From contig JAFRQM010000025.1 in NCBI GenBank assembly GCA_017428625.1, positions 12,988 to 76,987 on the forward strand: DNA of 64,000 bases, in the 5' to 3' direction. Source of the DNA: Clostridia bacterium. Lineage in GTDB: Bacteria; Bacillota; Clostridia; Oscillospirales; Acutalibacteraceae. The notes beneath the pieces were generated by a model. It saw only the letters and a program-made list of their open reading frames with translations, searched no databases and was not told where the DNA came from. Shown piece by piece: positions 1,162 to 60,083 of this stretch (within the stretch, counting starts at the first letter, position 1; every line of letters begins with the position of its first letter). Made by a program: the position numbers and the translations under genes.

Positions 1162-3369
1162 TCAGACTCTGTTCAGAACTATTTTGATAAATTCAACAAG
1201 TCTCTTGCCTGTCTGAACAAGGATGGGAACAATCTGAGCCCAGTTAAGTTTTGTAAGGAAACTGAACATAATCTTTAAATTGGACCAATCCTGACCGACG
1301 AATGCGTCTCGAAGCTGAACATACCAGGGCTTGGTTGTGACGCTGGTGACAGAAATGCTGTAATCCTTGTTTGTAAACGAACCTGAGTTGGCGGTTACCT
1401 GAATGTAATATGTTCCTTTGGCAAGGCTCTTTATGGTGTCTTCAAAGGGTTCTTTGCTTGTGAAACTGCCGACTTTGATAGGCTGTTTAAGGTCGGTTGA
1501 TGAGTAAATGCGAACATTCCAGACGAAATTCTTGGCATCTGTGATACCGGCTGCGACTTCCGCTTTGGTGTATTCTCTCTTAAGAGTGAAGTGCGCGTTC
1601 AGAACTGAACTTGTTTTGAATTTGAAATAGTCAACATCCGCTTTGTCGAATGCCGAGCCGCCGATGTAGAGACTGTCTTTGCCCTGAATGAGATCGTCGG
1701 CTGTGGCTGTGGTGTCGTTTGACTCGGTTTCATAACCTGTGTAGGCTGCATACTGAACGCCCACGCCGTATTCACCCTGTTTGCTGTTGTCAAAGTGTCT
1801 GGGTGTGACTTTGAGATAGTATATGCCTTCATCAAGACCGAGGCATGCGCTTGAGAATTCACCGTCAACATAGTCAACATCGAAACTCTTGACTGAGTTC
1901 TCGGAAACTACGCCCGCGTTGGTTGAAAGTTTGTTGACATCAACATGATAGATGGTATTGCACTCGCCGTTGTCCTGGCTGTAGAAACGGATGTAGGCAT
2001 AGCCGCGTTTAACATTGAAAACGAAGTAGTCGATATCATCTTTTGTTGCAATGCTTGCGGTGTAAATAACCGGGCTTGCGGATGTGCCTGTGTTGATTGA
2101 GGTAGCCGATGTGTAATCGTTGTTGGGCTCCTGCTCCGCGCCTGAAACAACAGCTGTTGTAACTACAAGAGTGTAGGGAATGGTTGTGTCTGCGTCGCCT
2201 GCGGCAAGGTCTTTATAAACACGGACATAATATGTGCCTGCCTTGACGGAATTCTTGACGCTCGCAACGTTGTTTTCGTTGCCTTTTGAAACTATTGATG
2301 TGATTTCGGTGCCGCTTGCGTCAATGAGTTTTGCGCGGAAATAAACATCTGATGAGTTTGCGACCGCGTGTGAGAGTGTGAAACTGATGATAGCGGAACT
2401 TGCTACTGTGATTTTGAAGTAGTCGTCTGTATCTTTGGCAAGTTCGTTTGTAACATCGAGAGCACCCAGCATAGGTCTGCCGCTTACAATAGGATCGGCG
2501 TCGGCTGTGGTGTTGTTGTTTTCGCTTTCTTCATCGTGGTCGGGAATTTCGGTAAGAGTGGCGGTAATCTGATACTCAACACCTGAAACCGCGCCGCCGT
2601 CGATTACTCTGATGTAATATGTGCCGGCTTTGAGGGCGTTGCCGTCGCCTGCGCTCCAGGATTTGGTTTCTTCCTGACCGAGGGATGCGAAGGAGTCAAC
2701 ACGGGTTGTGCCGTCGGCAGAGAAGATTGTAACATCAAAATATTTTGCGGTAACGCCTGCTTTGGCAGGATGAGTTATTGTAATATTGAGGTAATACGCT
2801 TTGTCAAGAGTAACTTTGAAATAGTCAATATCTGACGCACTTGAAAGGATACCCTTGACGGGTGTGCCGGGAGTAAGCTGATTGGCTGAACCGATGGTGT
2901 CGTTGCTTTCATTCTCTGAATTAACAGAGGCAGAAACCTTAACTGTATAGGATTTGCCTATTGCGGAAGCATTGTTAGTTTCAACCGCAATGTAATATGT
3001 AGCGCCTATTGTTGTTGAGAATGATTTGACTTCTGTGCCGGTGCTGCCGAGCGAGTCGATTTTGGTCATTGCGTTTGCCGCAGCGGGAGCGCTTGCGGAA
3101 TCAAACACCTGAACGGTGAAATAGACATTGGTGCTGCTTTCGGTCGCGTGCGTGAATGTAAACTCGGTTGCGGCAGATGTCGCCGTGAATTTATACCATG
3201 TTTTTGCGCCCGCAGCGCTCAGTGTGCCGGGAACCGTCAGACCCGGTGTAAGAGTTGTTGCGCTCGTATAGTCAGCCGCAGAAGCGATGGTAACGCTTGC
3301 GACAGAAACTACACTTAATGCCATAATGAGCGCAAGAAGTGCCGATAAGAGTCTTTTGCCTGTTTTCAT
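1162..3369 (-). CDS. Secreted non-catalytic protein with five tandem PPC/collagen-binding-like beta-sandwich domains and a hydrophobic/amphipathic C-terminal tail
   Basis: Signal peptide MKTGKRLLSALLALIMALSVV..ASA after a GGAGG RBS (start 3369); recurring E-x-E-x-N-(D/N), D-x-D-Y-F and G-(T/I)-Y-Y motifs. Confidence 0.7.
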   Translation of the reverse strand: MKTGKRLLSALLALIMALSVVSVASVTIASAADYTSATTLTPGLTVPGTLSAAGAKTWYKFTATSAATEFTFTHATESSTNVYFTVQVFDSASAPAAANAMTKIDSLGSTGTEVKSFSTTIGATYYIAVETNNASAIGKSYTVKVSASVNSENESNDTIGSANQLTPGTPVKGILSSASDIDYFKVTLDKAYYLNITITHPAKAGVTAKYFDVTIFSADGTTRVDSFASLGQEETKSWSAGDGNALKAGTYYIRVIDGGAVSGVEYQITATLTEIPDHDEESENNNTTADADPIVSGRPMLGALDVTNELAKDTDDYFKITVASSAIISFTLSHAVANSSDVYFRAKLIDASGTEITSIVSKGNENNVASVKNSVKAGTYYVRVYKDLAAGDADTTIPYTLVVTTAVVSGAEQEPNNDYTSATSINTGTSASPVIYTASIATKDDIDYFVFNVKRGYAYIRFYSQDNGECNTIYHVDVNKLSTNAGVVSENSVKSFDVDYVDGEFSSACLGLDEGIYYLKVTPRHFDNSKQGEYGVGVQYAAYTGYETESNDTTATADDLIQGKDSLYIGGSAFDKADVDYFKFKTSSVLNAHFTLKREYTKAEVAAGITDAKNFVWNVRIYSSTDLKQPIKVGSFTSKEPFEDTIKSLAKGTYYIQVTANSGSFTNKDYSISVTSVTTKPWYVQLRDAFVGQDWSNLKIMFSFLTKLNWAQIVPILVQTGKRLVEFIKIVLNRV

Positions 3370-3431
3370 TTTTTGTTCCTCCTGAAAAATTTTGAGTGGA
3401 TTTTTTGGATACTGTTCCATTATGCAAGTGG

Positions 3432-3460
3432 ATTTTATCACAACAGAACTTAAAAGTCAA
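3432..3460 (-). promoter_or_regulatory. Sigma-A-type promoter of the repeat-domain protein
   Basis: Minus strand TTGACT-17 bp-TAAAAT with TG extension. Confidence 0.6.
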
Positions 3461-7134: not shown

Positions 7135-8313
7135 TCAATACTTTTTCAGGATGTTTTCTTCAAGGGAGAAGAAACTGCCGGATGTATAAATGACTTCATC
7201 CGGGACGCTTTCAAATGTTTTTGTCTGGGTTACCTGCCCCTTTTTATTCAGTTTTGTGGCGGTTTTGCCGCAGACCGCAACGGTGACGGTGCCTTCGCAG
7301 CGCACATAGTCCGCTTCGCCGGTGATTGTTGTTTCGGCTGTTTTTACTCCCGACGCGGAATAGCGGAAAATTCTTGTCTGCGCTCCGCCGAATTCACGCA
7401 TTGATATTACGGCGTTGCCGTCTTCGTCAAAGGAGACGTTGTTGAGCTGATTTTCGCTGTATTCAAGGCCGTCGGTGCGTTCCATTTTTTTGTTATAAAT
7501 AACAAACTGGTTGTCGCCGACTGTGATTGTTCTGCCTGTTTTTGTAATGCAGACACGGAGCAACATTGTGTCATCGAATTTTGTTTCGGACAGAGGTTCG
7601 GTTTTACCTGTATCAAAAACAACAAGTCTGCTGTAAACAACGGCGTTTCTGACGCCCGAGGCAATAACCGCAAGCCTTTTTCCGTTTATCGACAGGCAGG
7701 CGTCGAGGATTCTTTCATCGGCACATTTCCACTCAAAAAGAGCATTGCCTGATGATGAATAAACGGTGATTTTGCTTTGAATATCGCTTCCGCCTTCTGT
7801 TGCGACAGCAAATTTTCCGTCTGAGGACAGGCAGGCTGTGAGGATTTTATCCGCAACGGTTATCTCGGACAGTTTTTCGGTTTTGCTTAGAAGAACGACT
7901 GTTCCTTTCGCGATATCATAGGCGAGGGTTCTGCCGTTCCTGATAACGGTTCTTGAATCCGAAGCGTTAAACTGCACGCTCCCCATTGTTCTCGCGCCCT
8001 GAGTGAGAAACTGCGCTTCATCGTTATAGAGAACGAGTATTTCGCCGTCAACCGGTTTTATTTCTTTTATACTCAGGCTTTCAACCGTAAGCGGCCAGCC
8101 GCCGTTTGACGACGACATAAACACCTTACGGAAAGAGTCAGTGACATTTGAAACCGCGACATTGCCGACGGTTTTTGCGGCAATATAAACAGCGGAGAGA
8201 ACAAGCGCAACGATGATAACAGTGAAAAGAATGTGCTTGAGCCTTTTGGGATGAGGATTTTCTTTACCGCTTTTGTTTTTGCGAAGGCGCGGTTTTCTGA
8301 TATTTATTTTCAA
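7135..8313 (-). CDS. Membrane-anchored beta-propeller-like protein (DUF5711-like)
   Basis: Basic N-terminus, single TM helix, repeated beta-strand blades. Confidence 0.55.
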   Translation of the reverse strand: MKINIRKPRLRKNKSGKENPHPKRLKHILFTVIIVALVLSAVYIAAKTVGNVAVSNVTDSFRKVFMSSSNGGWPLTVESLSIKEIKPVDGEILVLYNDEAQFLTQGARTMGSVQFNASDSRTVIRNGRTLAYDIAKGTVVLLSKTEKLSEITVADKILTACLSSDGKFAVATEGGSDIQSKITVYSSSGNALFEWKCADERILDACLSINGKRLAVIASGVRNAVVYSRLVVFDTGKTEPLSETKFDDTMLLRVCITKTGRTITVGDNQFVIYNKKMERTDGLEYSENQLNNVSFDEDGNAVISMREFGGAQTRIFRYSASGVKTAETTITGEADYVRCEGTVTVAVCGKTATKLNKKGQVTQTKTFESVPDEVIYTSGSFFSLEENILKKY

Positions 8314-9059
8314 CGGATTTCACCTCCGTAATTGACTTTGTTCAGGTAAAGCCCCTGCGGCGGAGCCGTCGGACCCGCGAGGGAACGGTCTTTTGATTTG
8401 ATTATTGCGGGAATACTCTCTTCATTGATTTTGCCCTGCGAAACGGCTGTGAGCGTGCCGGTGATTATTCTGACCATATTATAGAGAAAGCCGTCTGCCT
8501 CTATTGTGAAAATCACTTCGTCGCCCTGCCTTGCGACTTGCGCTTTTTTAACCGTGCGGACTGTGTCTTCCACGCTGCTGCCGGCGGAACAGAACGCCGA
8601 AAAGTCGTGTTCGCCGAGAAAATATTTCGCGCACCTGTCAAGCAGGTTTTCATTCAGAGGGTATTTGTATTGCCAGACAAGCCCGTTGAGAAAGGGCGAC
8701 GGCACGGGCGAGTTGAGTATTCTGTAAATGTATTCTTTTGAAACGCAGTCATACCTTGCGTGAAATCCCCACGGCACTTCGCTGCAGTTTTTAACCGCGA
8801 TATCTTCGGGCAGAACAGCATTGAGAGCCGTTACGAGTTTTTCGCAGGTGAAAGGCGTCTGCGTTCTGATGTTGCAGCAGAACATATTGGCGTGAACGCC
8901 CGCGTCGGTGCGTGAACAGCCCGTAACATTGTCACGCGTGCCGGTTATATGCTCCCACGCGTTCTGAAAAGTCTGCTGAACCGTGGGCGCGTTCTCCTGC
9001 ACCTGCCAGCCGTGATATGCCTTGCCGTTGTAGGCAAGTTCAAGAAGAAGGTTGCGCAC
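8310..9059 (-). CDS. truA: tRNA pseudouridine(38-40) synthase
   Basis: YNGKAYHGWQ, GCSRTDAGVHA, GFLYNMVR, TAPPQGLYL. Confidence 0.95.
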   Translation of the reverse strand: MRNLLLELAYNGKAYHGWQVQENAPTVQQTFQNAWEHITGTRDNVTGCSRTDAGVHANMFCCNIRTQTPFTCEKLVTALNAVLPEDIAVKNCSEVPWGFHARYDCVSKEYIYRILNSPVPSPFLNGLVWQYKYPLNENLLDRCAKYFLGEHDFSAFCSAGSSVEDTVRTVKKAQVARQGDEVIFTIEADGFLYNMVRIITGTLTAVSQGKINEESIPAIIKSKDRSLAGPTAPPQGLYLNKVNYGGEIR

Positions 9060-55512: not shown

Positions 55513-55926
55513 TCAGTTATTTTCGAGCATTGTAACCGCCTTGCGGATGGCTTCGCGTTCTTTATCGTTTTCTGCCTCGTTCATCATTTCTTCAAGGCGC
55601 GATTTAACCTCTGCTCCGTCGCGGCTGTATCTTCTCGCATATCTGCCCATACTGTCTCTGCGGTATGAGTTGCCGTTGCTGTAATTGTCGCGTGAGTAAC
55701 CACCTTCACGGGAATAGCCGCCGTTACGGGAGTAATTATCTCTTGAATAATCACCGTTCATTGAGTAACCGCCTTCACTTTCCATAATACGGTCAATATT
55801 CTTGATTGTATGCACAATCTTATCTATTGAGTCAAGCATTCCGATTGAAAACTGGTTACCCTCTACGACATCATCAAGCTCATAGCAAAGCATATCGCGG
55901 ATTTTTTCAAGTGTTTTTTCGCTCAT
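55513..55926 (-). CDS. Prophage cassette protein with Tyr-Ser-Arg/Gly repeats
   Basis: GGAGG RBS; helical N- and C-termini flanking GYS/YSR repeats. Confidence 0.8.
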   Translation of the reverse strand: MSEKTLEKIRDMLCYELDDVVEGNQFSIGMLDSIDKIVHTIKNIDRIMESEGGYSMNGDYSRDNYSRNGGYSREGGYSRDNYSNGNSYRRDSMGRYARRYSRDGAEVKSRLEEMMNEAENDKEREAIRKAVTMLENN

Positions 55927-55940
55927 TGCGTTTCCTCCTT

Positions 55941-56375
55941 TCAAGCGACTCGCTCAATTATAATATTCGCGTTCTGAACATCAATCGGCTGTTCGGAATT
56001 GTTCTCGACGGCTATCGTATAACAACAACCTCTCGGCACTGTCACAAATATTCCGTCATAGACATTCCAAAAGTCACCGACCGCCGCAGGTGTAACAATT
56101 GAGGAACTTGTCGGGATAGGTTCGCCGTCGATAGCGAGAGCGAGGGAAATCGGCTCAACCGTTCCGCCCTCCGCAATCGCTATATTTGCCCCGAAACAAA
56201 CCTTATATCGGGCAAACTGCGAACAGCAATTATTCACGATGCCCCTTAAAGTTATAACACCTGCTCCTTCACGGTGAATGACATAGCCTCTGTTACAAGG
56301 AACTGCCGTTTCTGTGAAAAGCACATTGTTTCCTGCCGTAACCGTCTGCACGGCATTTGCTGTATATTCGGGCAT
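55941..56375 (-). CDS. Prophage cassette protein, BclA C-terminal/C1q-TNF-like beta sandwich
   Basis: All-beta pattern QTV.AG.NVLF...ISLALAIDG...NANIIIERVA; 6 Cys. Confidence 0.6.
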   Translation of the reverse strand: MPEYTANAVQTVTAGNNVLFTETAVPCNRGYVIHREGAGVITLRGIVNNCCSQFARYKVCFGANIAIAEGGTVEPISLALAIDGEPIPTSSSIVTPAAVGDFWNVYDGIFVTVPRGCCYTIAVENNSEQPIDVQNANIIIERVA

Positions 56376-56387
56376 AACTACCTCCTA

Positions 56388-57113
56388 TCAACCGCAAGTG
56401 CCACAACCGCCACAACCGCTATTGCAGCAGTTAGGGTTCTGCACTACATAGGCAGGAACGGGAGTCGGATTGAGAATTGCGGTCTGTGCATTAAGGGCAG
56501 ACTGAATAAAGCCGTTCTGTGCCGTCTGCGACTGTGCGAATTTGAGGTTTGTGTTCTGCGCAAGCAATTCAGCGTTGCGGTCTTTGAGGGCGTCAATCTC
56601 CTGCTGGCAAAGTTTGTCAAGAATTGACTGATTGCCTGCGGTGATAGCGGTGATAATATCACGGACGCCGTCATTGAGGGCACTCCTGTCGGCACAATTC
56701 TCGGTTGCAACTGTGTATTTCAGGTCGGCTATTGCCGCTCTGTTCTCACAGCAACAGTTCTGTTGTGCCATTGATATGCCGTTGAGAACCTGCATAAGGT
56801 TCGCCTGTGTGTTTGCTCTGCCGAGTTCCGCATTTGCGAAACCGCTTGTAATTGCTCCGTTAATGCCGTCAAGTTTTGAAACAACAGCGGCATTATCAAA
56901 GCCCCTCTGCATATCTGCCTGTGTTACTGCGGATGTTGTGTAGGGTGTCGCTCCGCCGCCGTCATAACCGCCGAAGCCGCCCCAACCTCTGCCCCACATA
57001 AAGAGGAACAGAACGATTATCCACCACGCACCATTTCCGCCGAAGCCGTCATTGTTATTGCCGGTTACCGCCGCAAAATCAGCAGGGGTCATTTCAGATG
57101 TTGTAAGTGACAT
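56388..57113 (-). CDS. Prophage cassette protein: leader-like N-terminus, Gly/Trp TM segment, coiled coil, Cys-rich tail
   Basis: GAAAGG RBS; GAWWIIVLFLFMWGRGWGG; QQNCCCEN; PNCCNSGCGGCGTCG. Confidence 0.82.
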   Translation of the reverse strand: MSLTTSEMTPADFAAVTGNNNDGFGGNGAWWIIVLFLFMWGRGWGGFGGYDGGGATPYTTSAVTQADMQRGFDNAAVVSKLDGINGAITSGFANAELGRANTQANLMQVLNGISMAQQNCCCENRAAIADLKYTVATENCADRSALNDGVRDIITAITAGNQSILDKLCQQEIDALKDRNAELLAQNTNLKFAQSQTAQNGFIQSALNAQTAILNPTPVPAYVVQNPNCCNSGCGGCGTCG

Positions 57114-57157: not shown

Positions 57158-57361
57158 CTATTTCATACAGTTCATAAACTGTCTTGCAAGCCCTTGCAGT
57201 TGATTAAACTGTGCTTGCGACATTTGTCCGGTTCTCAACAGCTCCTCAACTTTTGATTTCGGGTCGCCTCTGAACATAGACCGAAACTCATTAAAAGCTG
57301 ACATCATCTGCGAAAACTGATTGTTTTGACCGCCTAAAAGTTGAAATAAAGGATTACTCAT
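57158..57361 (-). CDS. Prophage cassette small Q/M/N-rich helical protein
   Basis: 67 aa; start overlaps the upstream stop codon. Confidence 0.75.
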   Translation of the reverse strand: MSNPLFQLLGGQNNQFSQMMSAFNEFRSMFRGDPKSKVEELLRTGQMSQAQFNQLQGLARQFMNCMK

Positions 57362-57722
57362 CTTTCATCGCCTCTTTCTTGCCTTTTTTTGCCGTAATTT
57401 CGGCAATTTTCGCGTTAAATTCCTCACGGGTAATAAAATTATCGGTGTTTATGGAAACCGCCGCATTTGCACTGTCAGGGGCGTTTTTTAGTTCCTCGTA
57501 GGTAAACACCCTTAACGGCAACGGCATTCCGCTTATATCTGCGGATTTTATGTAGAATTTTGACTCCTCCGAGTCCATAAGCAGAACACTTTTGCCGGGG
57601 TTTACAAAAAATGATTTTGCTCCACTTTCGCCCTGCACCCATACAATGCCGTTATCGGATTGCGGTGTCGCCTGAGCCGGCTGTTGAACATAAGTTTGAT
57701 AGGGATAATTGTTATACATCAT
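57354..57722 (-). CDS. Prophage cassette protein with Y/Q/P-rich N-terminus
   Basis: GGAGG RBS; YNNYPYQTYVQQP, WVQGESGAKSF, FYIKS.D..GMP, C-terminal ITREEF helix. Confidence 0.8.
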   Translation of the reverse strand: MMYNNYPYQTYVQQPAQATPQSDNGIVWVQGESGAKSFFVNPGKSVLLMDSEESKFYIKSADISGMPLPLRVFTYEELKNAPDSANAAVSINTDNFITREEFNAKIAEITAKKGKKEAMKDE

Positions 57723-58095
57723 CTTTTTTCCTCCAAAAATATATAGGTATCTCGCTTGTTGAGTCCCAAGTGTCATATACATTGCCGTTTACTACCGCTA
57801 CGGCGTGTGAAGATAATGCCAAAACATAAGTTCCTTTTGGGTAATCTTTACAGAAATCCGCTACCGTATAACAGTTCGGGCAGGAGTTCGGCACAATTTC
57901 TCTTTCAAATCCTTTACTCTGTAAATAGGCACCCCAAACCGAATTTGCGGAAGGCATATCGCAGAGTTCAAGCCCTTTTAAACACACTCCCATATATGTT
58001 TTGTCCCAAGTCTCGCCGGTCGCTTTCGAGATTGCTCTCACAACGCAATCCCCGACATTTCGCTTTTTTGGGTTTAAGTTCAGGTAGATAAACAT
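57712..58095 (-). CDS. Prophage cassette small papain-fold cysteine peptidase (putative)
   Basis: GAGGTG RBS; GDCVVRAI (Cys), HAVAV (His), YDTWDS (Asp). Confidence 0.6.
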   Translation of the reverse strand: MFIYLNLNPKKRNVGDCVVRAISKATGETWDKTYMGVCLKGLELCDMPSANSVWGAYLQSKGFEREIVPNSCPNCYTVADFCKDYPKGTYVLALSSHAVAVVNGNVYDTWDSTSEIPIYFWRKKDDV

Positions 58096-58178: not shown

Positions 58179-58250
58179 AAAAAAAGACCTCCCTGCGAGG
58201 TCACAGAGAGGACATTGTCAGGACAAAAAAAAGACAGGCAAAGCCCGTCT
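58179..58250 (-). promoter_or_regulatory. Two hairpin/T-run elements interleaved with four 11-bp-phased repeats
   Basis: GGTCA 58199, GGACA 58210, GGACA 58221, AGACA 58232; hairpins 58186-58202 and 58232-58250, each followed by a T run on the minus strand. Confidence 0.6.
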
Positions 58251-58451
58251 TTAACCTATGTGTCTTATTAAATTTTGCATTTGTTTGTCAACTATTCTCC
58301 GTATTTGTCGAGCCGACATATCAAACTCCTCCGCTAACGGCTCATAACAAATACCGTCAAGAACTCTGCGTTTGAGTATTGTGCGGTCTCTTTCGCTGAA
58401 TACCCATTCGTCAATTAAGTGTTCCCACTCGGAACGACTTAAACCTTTCAT
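58251..58451 (-). CDS. Small helix-turn-helix protein (sigma region-4-like)
   Basis: RDRTILKRR..DG..YE.LAEEFDMS.RQIRRIV. Confidence 0.75.
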   Translation of the reverse strand: MKGLSRSEWEHLIDEWVFSERDRTILKRRVLDGICYEPLAEEFDMSARQIRRIVDKQMQNLIRHIG

Positions 58452-58660: not shown

Positions 58661-59269
58661 TCAATCAAGATATTTTGCGAAACACCATTTGTTTTCGCCT
58701 ATCCGTGCCCAGTTGCCTTTGTATTCAAGCGGCTTAACAAGCGTGCCTTTCGGCAGCTCATCAACAACAGGGTGGTTTGTGCCTGCGCCGCTCCGCACAT
58801 TAAGATTTGCCGTTGTGCATTTCAGGAGCGGACGGATAACACCGAGCACGCCTTTATAATTGTGCTTTATTTCGGCGCAGTAATACTTACCGCCCCAGTT
58901 TTGGTCGAGACTGTAAAAAGTTGAGCGGTTGCCCTTGCCGAGCGCAATGGCAGTGTGACCCGCAACGCCTGTAACGCCGTCATAAGTTCCCCATTCGACA
59001 ATATCACCTTTTTGTGGAACAAAATCGGGCGTATTCTTAATCTTGATGAATTTACCCTTTAATTGCGGGTAATCATCAAAGTTATACCACAAACCTTTTG
59101 CGTAACCGTGAGGGTTTTTGTTAGTAGTAAAAGAAAAGTTTTTTATGCCGTAGCATTTTTCGAGATAAAATTTAATCTCATCCACGCACTGGTAAGGCTG
59201 AGACGGCACACCGTCATAATCGAGCTTCTTGCCGTTTGCCCATTTTAGAAAGTCAGATTTTGTCATCAT
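58661..59269 (-). CDS. Endolysin: CHAP amidase/peptidase plus SH3b cell-wall binding domain
   Basis: YQCVD (Cys), GHTAIA (His), LDQNWG; LNVRSGAGT...GNWARIG. Confidence 0.9.
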   Translation of the reverse strand: MMTKSDFLKWANGKKLDYDGVPSQPYQCVDEIKFYLEKCYGIKNFSFTTNKNPHGYAKGLWYNFDDYPQLKGKFIKIKNTPDFVPQKGDIVEWGTYDGVTGVAGHTAIALGKGNRSTFYSLDQNWGGKYYCAEIKHNYKGVLGVIRPLLKCTTANLNVRSGAGTNHPVVDELPKGTLVKPLEYKGNWARIGENKWCFAKYLD

Positions 59270-59534
59270 CGGTACCGCCCTCCGAATAGGTAAAATAGCC
59301 GTCTTTATCTTTAACAATGGTAATTATATGCTTTGCCGCCTCCGCTGTTAAATCAACCGCTTTTGCGTCAATCACGCCCTCAATGATAATATATGTCACT
59401 GCCGGGAGCACTGCGCTTATGACGGCGCAGATTACGCCGATTTTACCGCCGAGAGCCGAAAGGCTAACCGCTACGCCTCCGATAGCGGAAAGAACAGCAA
59501 TTATAAATTTTCTGCTTTTAAGCTTCTTAACCAT
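59253..59534 (-). CDS. Holin-like protein
   Basis: KLKSRKFII N-terminus, two TM helices, directly upstream of the endolysin. Confidence 0.7.
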   Translation of the reverse strand: MVKKLKSRKFIIAVLSAIGGVAVSLSALGGKIGVICAVISAVLPAVTYIIIEGVIDAKAVDLTAEAAKHIITIVKDKDGYFTYSEGGTDDDKI

Positions 59535-59835
59535 AGTATTGACCTCCGTAATCGTCATAGTCATTGTCGCCTTTTTGTGTTATATCTGCCTTATCAACAG
59601 GCAGATTTTCTTGTTTTAAGCGTTCAATTAAATTTTGCGTTTCTTTACCTGAAATAACGCTTTTTGCAATTTTTATGCTCGCTGTTGCCGCAAACTCAAC
59701 GCCGAATGTGATGAAAAAGTATTGAGTTAAGGTATCGGGCAAATATATACCCTTAACGGCAAGCGCAACAGCCGTTATCGTATAGGCAATACAGATTGTA
59801 AATGCGGCTATAACCGCCCGTGACAGACTTTTCAT
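59527..59835 (-). CDS. Second holin-like membrane protein
   Basis: Two TM helices, charged C-terminus, within the lysis module. Confidence 0.5.
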   Translation of the reverse strand: MKSLSRAVIAAFTICIAYTITAVALAVKGIYLPDTLTQYFFITFGVEFAATASIKIAKSVISGKETQNLIERLKQENLPVDKADITQKGDNDYDDYGGQYYG

Positions 59836-60083
59836 CTTTGCAGAATATAGGCGATAATGCCGGTTGCCGCCGCTCCGATGAGTGCTGATATAAGTTTATC
59901 CCACAGGGTGGCGGGCTTCGCCTGCAACGCAACAACAGCGTCTTTGAGTTCGTTCAGGTTCGTTGATATGCCGTCAAGTTTTACATTTATGACCTCACGG
60001 AAAGTCACAAATTCGGATGTTGACATCTCAACCTTTTTAAGCCTTTGCTCGTGATCTTCAAGTCTGCGTTCGATTTCATCCAT
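59832..60083 (-). CDS. XhlA-like coiled-coil/TM lysis-module protein
   Basis: IERRLEDHEQRL coiled coil plus C-terminal TM helix. Confidence 0.55.
   Translation of the reverse strand: MDEIERRLEDHEQRLKKVEMSTSEFVTFREVINVKLDGISTNLNELKDAVVALQAKPATLWDKLISALIGAAATGIIAYILQR

Follow-up and report, generated by a model that had tools for sequence, protein, structure and literature searches.

Related systems and the present locus

Fibres of the BclA and F-BclA type, and other fibres with C1q/TNF-like heads, carry a small jelly-roll head on a long oligomeric stalk that is held by an anchoring peptide (PMC12357932). A similar arrangement is suggested here for the product of a prophage gene at positions 56388-57113 (minus strand) of the window, i.e. 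the whole 64,000-nucleotide stretch analysed from contig JAFRQM010000025.1 of a Clostridia bacterium. The gene belongs to a module of six tightly packed genes in the order pep-p142-p67-rod protein-p144-p143, where "rod protein" denotes the product under study. It is tentatively considered as the membrane-tethered coiled-coil stalk of a two-piece fibre, whose Pro/Cys tail would be coupled to a head encoded by the neighbouring gene p144, with the papain-like protein pep possibly trimming one component; this reading is possible, though somewhat short of probable. The likeness to BclA extends to a Pro-rich peptide that could dock on a beta trimer, to cytoplasmic synthesis without signal peptides, and to weak matches of the heads to BclA_C. 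Unlike BclA, the stalk has a predicted alpha-helical structure and lacks collagen GXY repeats, head and stalk are separate polypeptides, a hydrophobic anchor stands in place of the exosporium leader, many hosts of the module do not sporulate, and the homology is not significant.

Other described proteins share single aspects of this organization. The phi29 protein p16.7 and the T4 holin T are phage-encoded and, like the rod protein, combine a single membrane segment with a short N-tail and a larger helical domain; unlike it, they act alone, lack Cys clusters and conserved partner genes, and show no sequence similarity to it. Cys-rich termini join the chains of the Rad50 zinc hook through a shared metal, and disulfides between CC motifs and the jelly-roll join the chains of the Ena spore-fibre connectors; both are analogies only, and no sequence or fold relationship of the rod protein to either was found. 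Together with the i-spanin Rz and the double-glycine/C39 systems, each of these known systems differs from the module in at least one defining feature.

The rod protein matches only PHROG 16490 (E=1e-41), a family of unassigned function, and no significant Pfam, NCBIfam, PADLOC or PDB sequence match was obtained for it. All six module proteins, searched singly and as profiles, likewise gave nothing significant in Pfam, NCBIfam, PADLOC or PDB; each falls in its own PHROG without an assigned function, and the PADLOC defence models gave zero matches for eight proteins of the region. Literature searches on the PHROG numbers and on a cassette downstream of endolysins found nothing. With no characterised homologue of any of the six proteins detected by these tools, the module is, as far as they reach, undescribed, and it may represent a new combination of familiar parts, namely a coiled-coil stalk, a jelly-roll head and a papain-like protease.

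Gene and architecture of the rod protein

The gene and the parts of its predicted product are as follows.

56388-57113, minus strand: open reading frame of the predicted membrane-anchored, Cys-rich rod protein (PHROG 16490)
57030-57113, minus strand: acidic N-tail without Lys or Arg, residues 1-28
57057-57092, minus strand: leader-like motif MTPADFAAVTGN, residues 8-19, with a predicted helix at 10-16
56991-57029, minus strand: likely hydrophobic anchor AWWIIVLFLFMWG with Gly and Trp flanks, residues 29-41, with a predicted helix at 30-41
56931-56990, minus strand: Gly-rich disordered linker, residues 42-61, with a predicted local distance difference test score (pLDDT) <50
56472-56930, minus strand: predicted alpha-helical rod of 7- and 11-residue units, residues 62-214
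56748-56756, minus strand: Cys triplet C120-C122 within QQNCCCENRA, with C140 and C169 further along the rod
56391-56471, minus strand: C-terminal tail, residues 215-241, with an NPxPVPAYVVQNP motif followed by the Cys cluster CCNSGCGGCGTCG

The open reading frame encodes 241 amino acids plus a stop, with the start ATG at 57113-57111, the stop at 56390-56388 and GAAAGGAAA 8 nucleotides 5' of the ATG; translation of the plus strand over the same interval meets stops throughout. The preliminary description of this interval had reported Cys clusters, a leader-like N-terminus and a coiled coil. These features are real, as the minus-strand frame holds every string quoted at that time, including MSLTTSEMTPADFAAVTGNNNDGFGGNGAWWIIVLFLFMWGRGWGGFGG, NCCCEN and the terminal NCCNSGCGGCGTCG, and their retention across a large family, examined in an alignment of 121 sequences, argues against chance. 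The ten Cys residues occupy positions 120-122, 140, 169, 229, 230, 234, 237 and 240; C122, C140 and C169 are invariant in the aligned relatives, and C120/121, C229/230, C237, the N-terminal AD.AA motif, the QRGFDQ box, the ADLKYTVATENCADR box and P.P.PAY.V.NP are conserved in ≥90% of them. The G+C content over positions 56400-57000, within the gene, is 0.50-0.52 as against 0.40-0.46 over the remaining prophage, and this rise probably reflects the Ala/Gly/Cys-rich composition of the product.

An AlphaFold monomer model built on the 121 sequences predicts helices at residues 10-16, 30-41 and 62-71, an uninterrupted helix at 74-214, and disorder at 42-61 and in the tail (215-241). The mean pLDDT of the model is 65.8, with values of 70-86 along the rod. 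Charged residues account for 17% of the rod and A/N/Q/S/T/G for 54%, a composition that is, as read from the sequence, fibre-like and unlike that of typical cytoplasmic coiled coils.

The rod varies in length from about 125 to 270 residues across relatives, and the variation is stepwise: the dominant events are insertions of 11 (62 cases), 4 (63), 7 (22), 22 (18) and 18 (12) residues and deletions of 7 (21 cases) and 11 (14) residues. Long homologues (P0218 and P0250) display tandem NGFAxVxxxxx 11-mers with a Phe every 11 residues, a spacing which recalls the aromatic units described in tape measure proteins; in P0218, the CCC box is duplicated as well. The quantisation of the indels at 7, 11, 18 and 22 residues and the visible 11-mer repeats indicate that the rod is a predicted extended coiled coil of mixed heptads and hendecads. 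The A/N/Q-rich heptads claimed earlier thus hold as a coiled-coil rod, but are better described as mixed 7- and 11-residue units, as Fourier analysis of the rod hydrophobicity detected no heptads (p about 0.05-0.5).

The Gly/Trp membrane segment of the preliminary description fares similarly. A hydrophobic stretch flanked by Trp and Gly is present and is likely to be a membrane segment; it is graded as likely, and not as proven, because its hydrophobic core spans only 12 residues, with Kyte-Doolittle values of 2.3 over 12 residues and 1.3 over 19. Family N-tails are 32 residues long at the median and contain about three acidic residues; 72% of them have no Lys or Arg, and the side following the anchor is almost uncharged. 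This charge bias mildly favours an N-out, C-in orientation.

Proposed coupling of the tail to the downstream protein

The proposed head is encoded directly downstream of the rod protein.

55941-56375, minus strand: p144, 144 amino acids, beta-rich, with conserved Cys pairs (PHROG 20016), proposed head

In p144, C118 is invariant and C117 is conserved in ≥90% of relatives. Four loci (L052, L058, L063 and L067) lack p144, the rod protein gene being followed directly by p143; it is precisely in these loci that the tails end in ...PYPIPAYTVANPVTPA with zero terminal Cys residues, while CCC and PxPIPAY are kept. In every other locus that has no p144 match and does have downstream sequence, another small, Cys-bearing, beta-rich protein comes after the rod protein. 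These followers comprise at least four sequence types, split by eye, and the follower family differs between phage lineages. The observation that a conserved stalk is paired with a small, exchangeable beta protein is firm.

The fold of the followers was approached through weak matches, all sub-threshold. BclA_C (PF18573) matches one p144 homologue out of 47 at E=0.003, and the followers of L053 and L057 at E=8e-4 and 3.5e-3, respectively. The best PDB match of the p144 profile is 9H38 (E=0.041), a structure of the C1q-like head at the tip of the F-BclA spore fibre (PMC12357932). A C1q-like fold of p144 is a lead and not a result.

Module, prophage context and distribution

The remaining genes and signals of the region are given below.

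57712-58095, minus strand: pep, 127 amino acids, papain-like Cys-His-Asp (C17, H97, D108) with a CPxC motif (PHROG 3754)
57354-57722, minus strand: p142, 122 amino acids (PHROG 21718)
57158-57361, minus strand: p67, 67 amino acids, Met/Gln-rich and helical (PHROG 22984)
55513-55926, minus strand: p143, 137 amino acids, helix followed by Gly/Tyr/Ser/Arg-rich disorder and a second helix
58251-58451, minus strand: 66-amino-acid helix-turn-helix protein, sigma-70 region 4/Mor-like, just upstream of the module
58186-58252, minus strand: two tandem strong terminator-like hairpins separating the lysis and helix-turn-helix genes from the module

The rod protein gene is located in the last 3 kb of the prophage, in which tail-fibre, XhlA-like, holin and CHAP/SH3 endolysin genes reach to position 58661. 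Between the endolysin and the terminators lie a 62-amino-acid open reading frame and the 66-amino-acid helix-turn-helix protein; the latter gives weak matches to sigma-70 region 4, Mor and the CD3324 family, has a homologue upstream of the module in 14 related loci, and is a candidate for a regulator specific to the module. In the window, no sigma-70-like promoter was detected in the interval from the hairpins to pep. Reading frames overlap between pep and the other module genes, and host genes (a two-component system) start past the module. The lysis block itself is PBSX-like (minus strand, 59832-60083, 59253-59835 and 58661-59317), with an 83-amino-acid coiled-coil protein that has a C-terminal membrane segment and resembles XhlA by eye, along with a pair of holin-like proteins and a CHAP + SH3 endolysin.

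For synteny, iterated profiles were run against the open reading frames called in 71 related loci. The collinear order of all six genes is intact in at least 37 of the 71 loci, three loci (L013, L053 and L057) carry rearranged yet linked modules, and the most distant loci retain p142 and the rod protein. In the Butyrivibrio phage Ceridwen, the module follows the endolysin and an annotated terminator at the equivalent place, its genes being annotated as hypothetical; the cultured isolate Vescimonas fastidiosa MM35 also carries it, and RefSeq lists every gene as hypothetical. The module precedes the integrase in Dulem virus 33 (L002), and in L005 it is situated at a prophage end next to pyruvate kinase. 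In SPbeta-like phage contigs (L003/L004), it lies beside a 241-amino-acid tyrosine-recombinase-like gene, between a YomU-type tail tube gene and a 6443-amino-acid protein, a placement which suggests that the module moves as a cassette. A trimmed module occurs among recombination and replication genes in the Bacteroides phage C3_41T2LP. In these varied genomic positions, it therefore behaves like a mobile accessory module and not like a part of the lysis or structural blocks.

Two further features of these loci were observed. In Dulem virus 33, an endonuclease gene on the opposite strand (8172-8723) separates p67 from the rod protein gene and looks like a homing-endonuclease-type insertion; in the SPbeta-like contigs, the rod protein gene appears split in the open reading frame calls.

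Clustering of the rod protein family at 90% identity gives more than 8000 clusters, and at 50% identity 1613. Nearly all members stem from metagenomes of gut and rumen, from phage contigs, or from prophages of Clostridia and Selenomonadales, with recognisable relatives also in a Bacteroides phage and a Vibrio contig; gut metagenomes of humans, ruminants and other sources contain the family in abundance. The module, carried by thousands of gut phages, marks a sizeable part of phage biology that is still unexplored.

Among the partners, p142 is the most faithful neighbour of the rod protein and displays a Tyr/Pro/Gln-rich N-terminus, a conserved beta-barrel-like (SH3-like) core and a C-terminal helix. 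Across 45 relatives, Met makes up 8.9% and Gln 18.8% of p67; five of 43 members give weak, sub-threshold matches to the STI1/HOP DP models and four of 43 give matches, likewise sub-threshold, to the tape-measure model TMP_2 (best E=6e-5). These matches may be composition artefacts, and a role of p67 as a chaperone or holdase for the hydrophobic anchor is speculative. No transmembrane segment or signal peptide was found in the five partner proteins, nor a lipobox in any module protein or in the open reading frames embedded within the rod protein gene. In p143, a low-complexity core with GGYSRDNYS repeats and RRDSMGRY lies between two conserved helices, and its match to a 17-amino-acid Uperin model is at chance level.

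Proposed mechanism

According to the proposed mechanism, the rod protein would be the stalk in an assembly of several proteins, encoded by an accessory ("moron") module that gut phages carry as a self-contained unit. The rod would form a parallel coiled-coil oligomer, probably a trimer, and its Pro/Cys tail would dock on the exchangeable beta head (p144, possibly BclA_C/C1q-like), with inter-chain disulfides or a shared metal site locking tail and head. The outcome would be a two-piece fibre tethered to the cytoplasmic membrane. The proteins p142, p67 and p143 would serve as assembly partners, of which p67 may shield the hydrophobic anchor, and pep may trim one component, the N-tail being one candidate substrate. 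Since the other five proteins lack an export signal and the charge bias favours N-out, the fibre would probably be assembled on the cytoplasmic side of the membrane and become exposed only when the cell lyses. In the reverse orientation, it would be a surface fibre, which the fibre-like composition and the variable rod length would suit. Because the head is exchangeable, recognition of a variable partner is suggested, and exclusion of other phages, receptor masking or adhesion may be guessed at.

Several observations weigh against this stalk-and-head arrangement. The joint loss of p144 and the tail Cys residues occurs within one clade (62-83% identity) and represents roughly one evolutionary event, and the tail type (PxPIPAY or CPVPxxPVYG) co-varies with p144 no more than with the other module proteins. 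The link between p144 and BclA_C stays below every significance threshold, and hhalign of p144 against the L053-type follower returned a probability of 7%. The rod protein monomer model has a predicted template modelling score of 0.24, Foldseek of this model against PDB gave no match at all, and the hydrophobic core is short. Disulfide locking is uncertain in strictly anaerobic hosts. Furthermore, the module region was present in gut metagenome DNA runs only and in no RNA-seq run.

A broader version of the proposal is decidedly doubtful. It would have the six genes build an undescribed device in which a tethered stalk is Cys-locked to exchangeable heads and matured by pep at a double-glycine-like signal; the device would control interactions among infected cells, debris and phages, and would be common to thousands of gut phages of monoderm and diderm hosts. 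As a conserved and probably separately transcribed module of considerable size at a classic moron position, the six genes are likely to affect the behaviour of gut phages or lysogens through exclusion, lysis products or surface properties. The stalk offers experimental handles in its leader-like peptide, CCC ring, Cys tail and partner head, and cultivable carriers exist in the Butyrivibrio phage Ceridwen and the prophage of Vescimonas fastidiosa MM35.

Alternative readings

The alternative that survives best, while being unlikely, takes the N-terminal ~18 residues as a double-glycine-type leader cut by pep, the cut activating a membrane pore former, a fusogen or a crosslinked polymer in the manner of protease-activated pore formers. 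The rod protein resembles the substrates of double-glycine/C39 systems (ComA, LahT150 and the peptidase-containing ATP-binding cassette transporters, PCAT) in that positions −12, −7 and −4 are hydrophobic, −11 is Ser/Thr, −8 is acidic and −2 is Gly. Both the window motif (M-T-P-A-D-F-A-A-V-T-G-N) and the family consensus (L-S-A-A-D-V-A-A-V-T-G-N) fit L-S-x-x-E-L-x-x-I-x-G-G at all positions but the last, and the helix predicted at residues 10-16 falls on the motif. A relaxed leader pattern was found in 221 of 336 relatives and the strict pattern in 49, as against 0.2 expected in shuffled tails, an excess which gauges conservation and not independent recurrence, since the sequences share descent. 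At positions −2/−1, the 221 motif-bearing relatives carry GN (82), GS (23), GG (20) or GA (5); thus the commonest class, like the window protein, has Asn at −1 in place of the residues of GG, GA or GS. An unrelated xMPVxP motif occupies the N-terminus of 50 relatives and neither motif is present in 65, so that 115 of the 336 lack the leader pattern. The leader proposed in the preliminary description is borne out in its spacing and coincides with a predicted helix, but it is not borne out in the residue at −1, and the pattern is retained in a part of the family. The leader resemblance is real; membership of the rod protein in the double-glycine/C39 class is not established, as several defining features fail.

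The candidate peptidase gives a comparable picture. The model of pep is papain-like (pLDDT 94.5), and Asn6, Asp16-Cys17, Arg20, His97, Gly104 and Asp108 are invariant across 38 diverse homologues. The Cys-His and His-Asp distances in pep are 80 and 11 residues, and in the C39 domain of ComA 79 and 16; the predicted triad spacing is close to that of C39 domains. LahT150 is a double-glycine protease, and it appears with Josephin among the best fold neighbours of pep; the Foldseek matches against PDB are weak (Josephin-2, E=0.14 and TM 0.49; LahT150, E=0.98 and TM 0.48; also viral deubiquitinases and PaTox). Against viral models, Foldseek returned many relatives, none of them characterised. No match to Pfam C39 (PF03412 or related) was obtained at E up to 0.1-1 for the window pep and the 38 homologues, nor any PDB sequence match for pep. 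The small Cys-His-Asp papain-like neighbour, its overlapping frames and its tight synteny with the module support the earlier claim of a cassette peptidase, but its assignment to C39 does not follow, as the C39 sequence signature is missing. The motif class does not co-vary with pep (area under the curve 0.555, no better than for p67, p144 or p143). Both N-terminal motifs occur with and without a nearby pep gene.

By sequence, the pep family extends to Tsamsa-like Bacillus phages, Geobacillus GBK2 and Lak phages; in GBK2 and Tsamsa, where the pep neighbourhood was checked, none of the other module genes is present. The protein is accordingly widespread in phages without the rod protein and is, as judged from sequence and predicted fold, an orphan phage enzyme family with a substrate not yet assigned. 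No transporter and no ABC exporter (PCAT) was matched by the six module proteins and their neighbours, and the putative cargo is a 220-amino-acid membrane rod, unlike a secreted peptide. The Gly/Trp/Phe-rich hydrophobic segment with its short core does resemble fusion peptides; if the N-tail is translocated (N-out), a cytoplasmic peptidase would reach it only before insertion. Structural relatives of pep were also seen in Pseudomonas, Enterococcus and Caulobacter phages, among others.

In a second alternative, the rod and its exchangeable head form an accessory fibre on virions or on vesicles released by lysis, the hydrophobic segment acting as a temporary anchor or as an oligomer core. The low-charge, A/N/Q/S/T/G-rich rod has a phage-fibre composition and variable length in 11-residue units, the encoding of an exchangeable head after the shaft recalls fibre/adhesin pairs, and the partners have no export signal. 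The gene, however, is outside the structural block and behind terminators, and in the Bacteroides phage it occupies an early-gene region. The record of one relative is annotated "outer capsid protein/viral fiber", a name that is most likely a coiled-coil artefact, and no proteomic evidence was found. A virion or vesicle component is thus quite improbable.

Still less credit is due to a spanin-like or lysis accessory protein, which would be a type II membrane protein with an envelope-spanning coiled coil that acts with XhlA, holin and endolysin in the last lysis step or in lysis timing. The module stands directly downstream of the lysis cassette in the window, Ceridwen and Vescimonas, the N-terminal anchor, coiled-coil body and conserved Cys residues resemble those of the i-spanin Rz, which also adjoins lysis genes, and phages of diderm hosts (Selenomonadales, Bacteroides and Vibrio) also carry relatives. 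Unlike Rz, the rod protein has no o-spanin lipoprotein partner and most of its carriers look like monoderm Clostridia; two terminators intervene between the lysis genes and the module, which in C3_41T2LP and the SPbeta-like phage is surrounded by recombination/replication genes and by a tail region, respectively, and the twofold variation in rod length is unlike a periplasm-spanning ruler. This reading is very improbable.

Four other candidates were rejected: a chance open reading frame in view of the massive family conservation, a holin since the protein exceeds holin size and the prophage already encodes holins, a bacteriocin precursor since there is no exporter and the protein is a 220-amino-acid rod, and a spore or exosporium protein since relatives are found in non-sporulating hosts.

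Other observations in the window

The remaining window encodes pyruvate:ferredoxin oxidoreductase, pyruvate phosphate dikinase, Der, a Clp ATPase and glycosidases. In a 759-amino-acid host protein (1162-3441, minus strand), residues 365-410 match the type A sorting domain of the type IX secretion system above the model cut-off, a match that would be unexpected in a Clostridium-like anaerobe.

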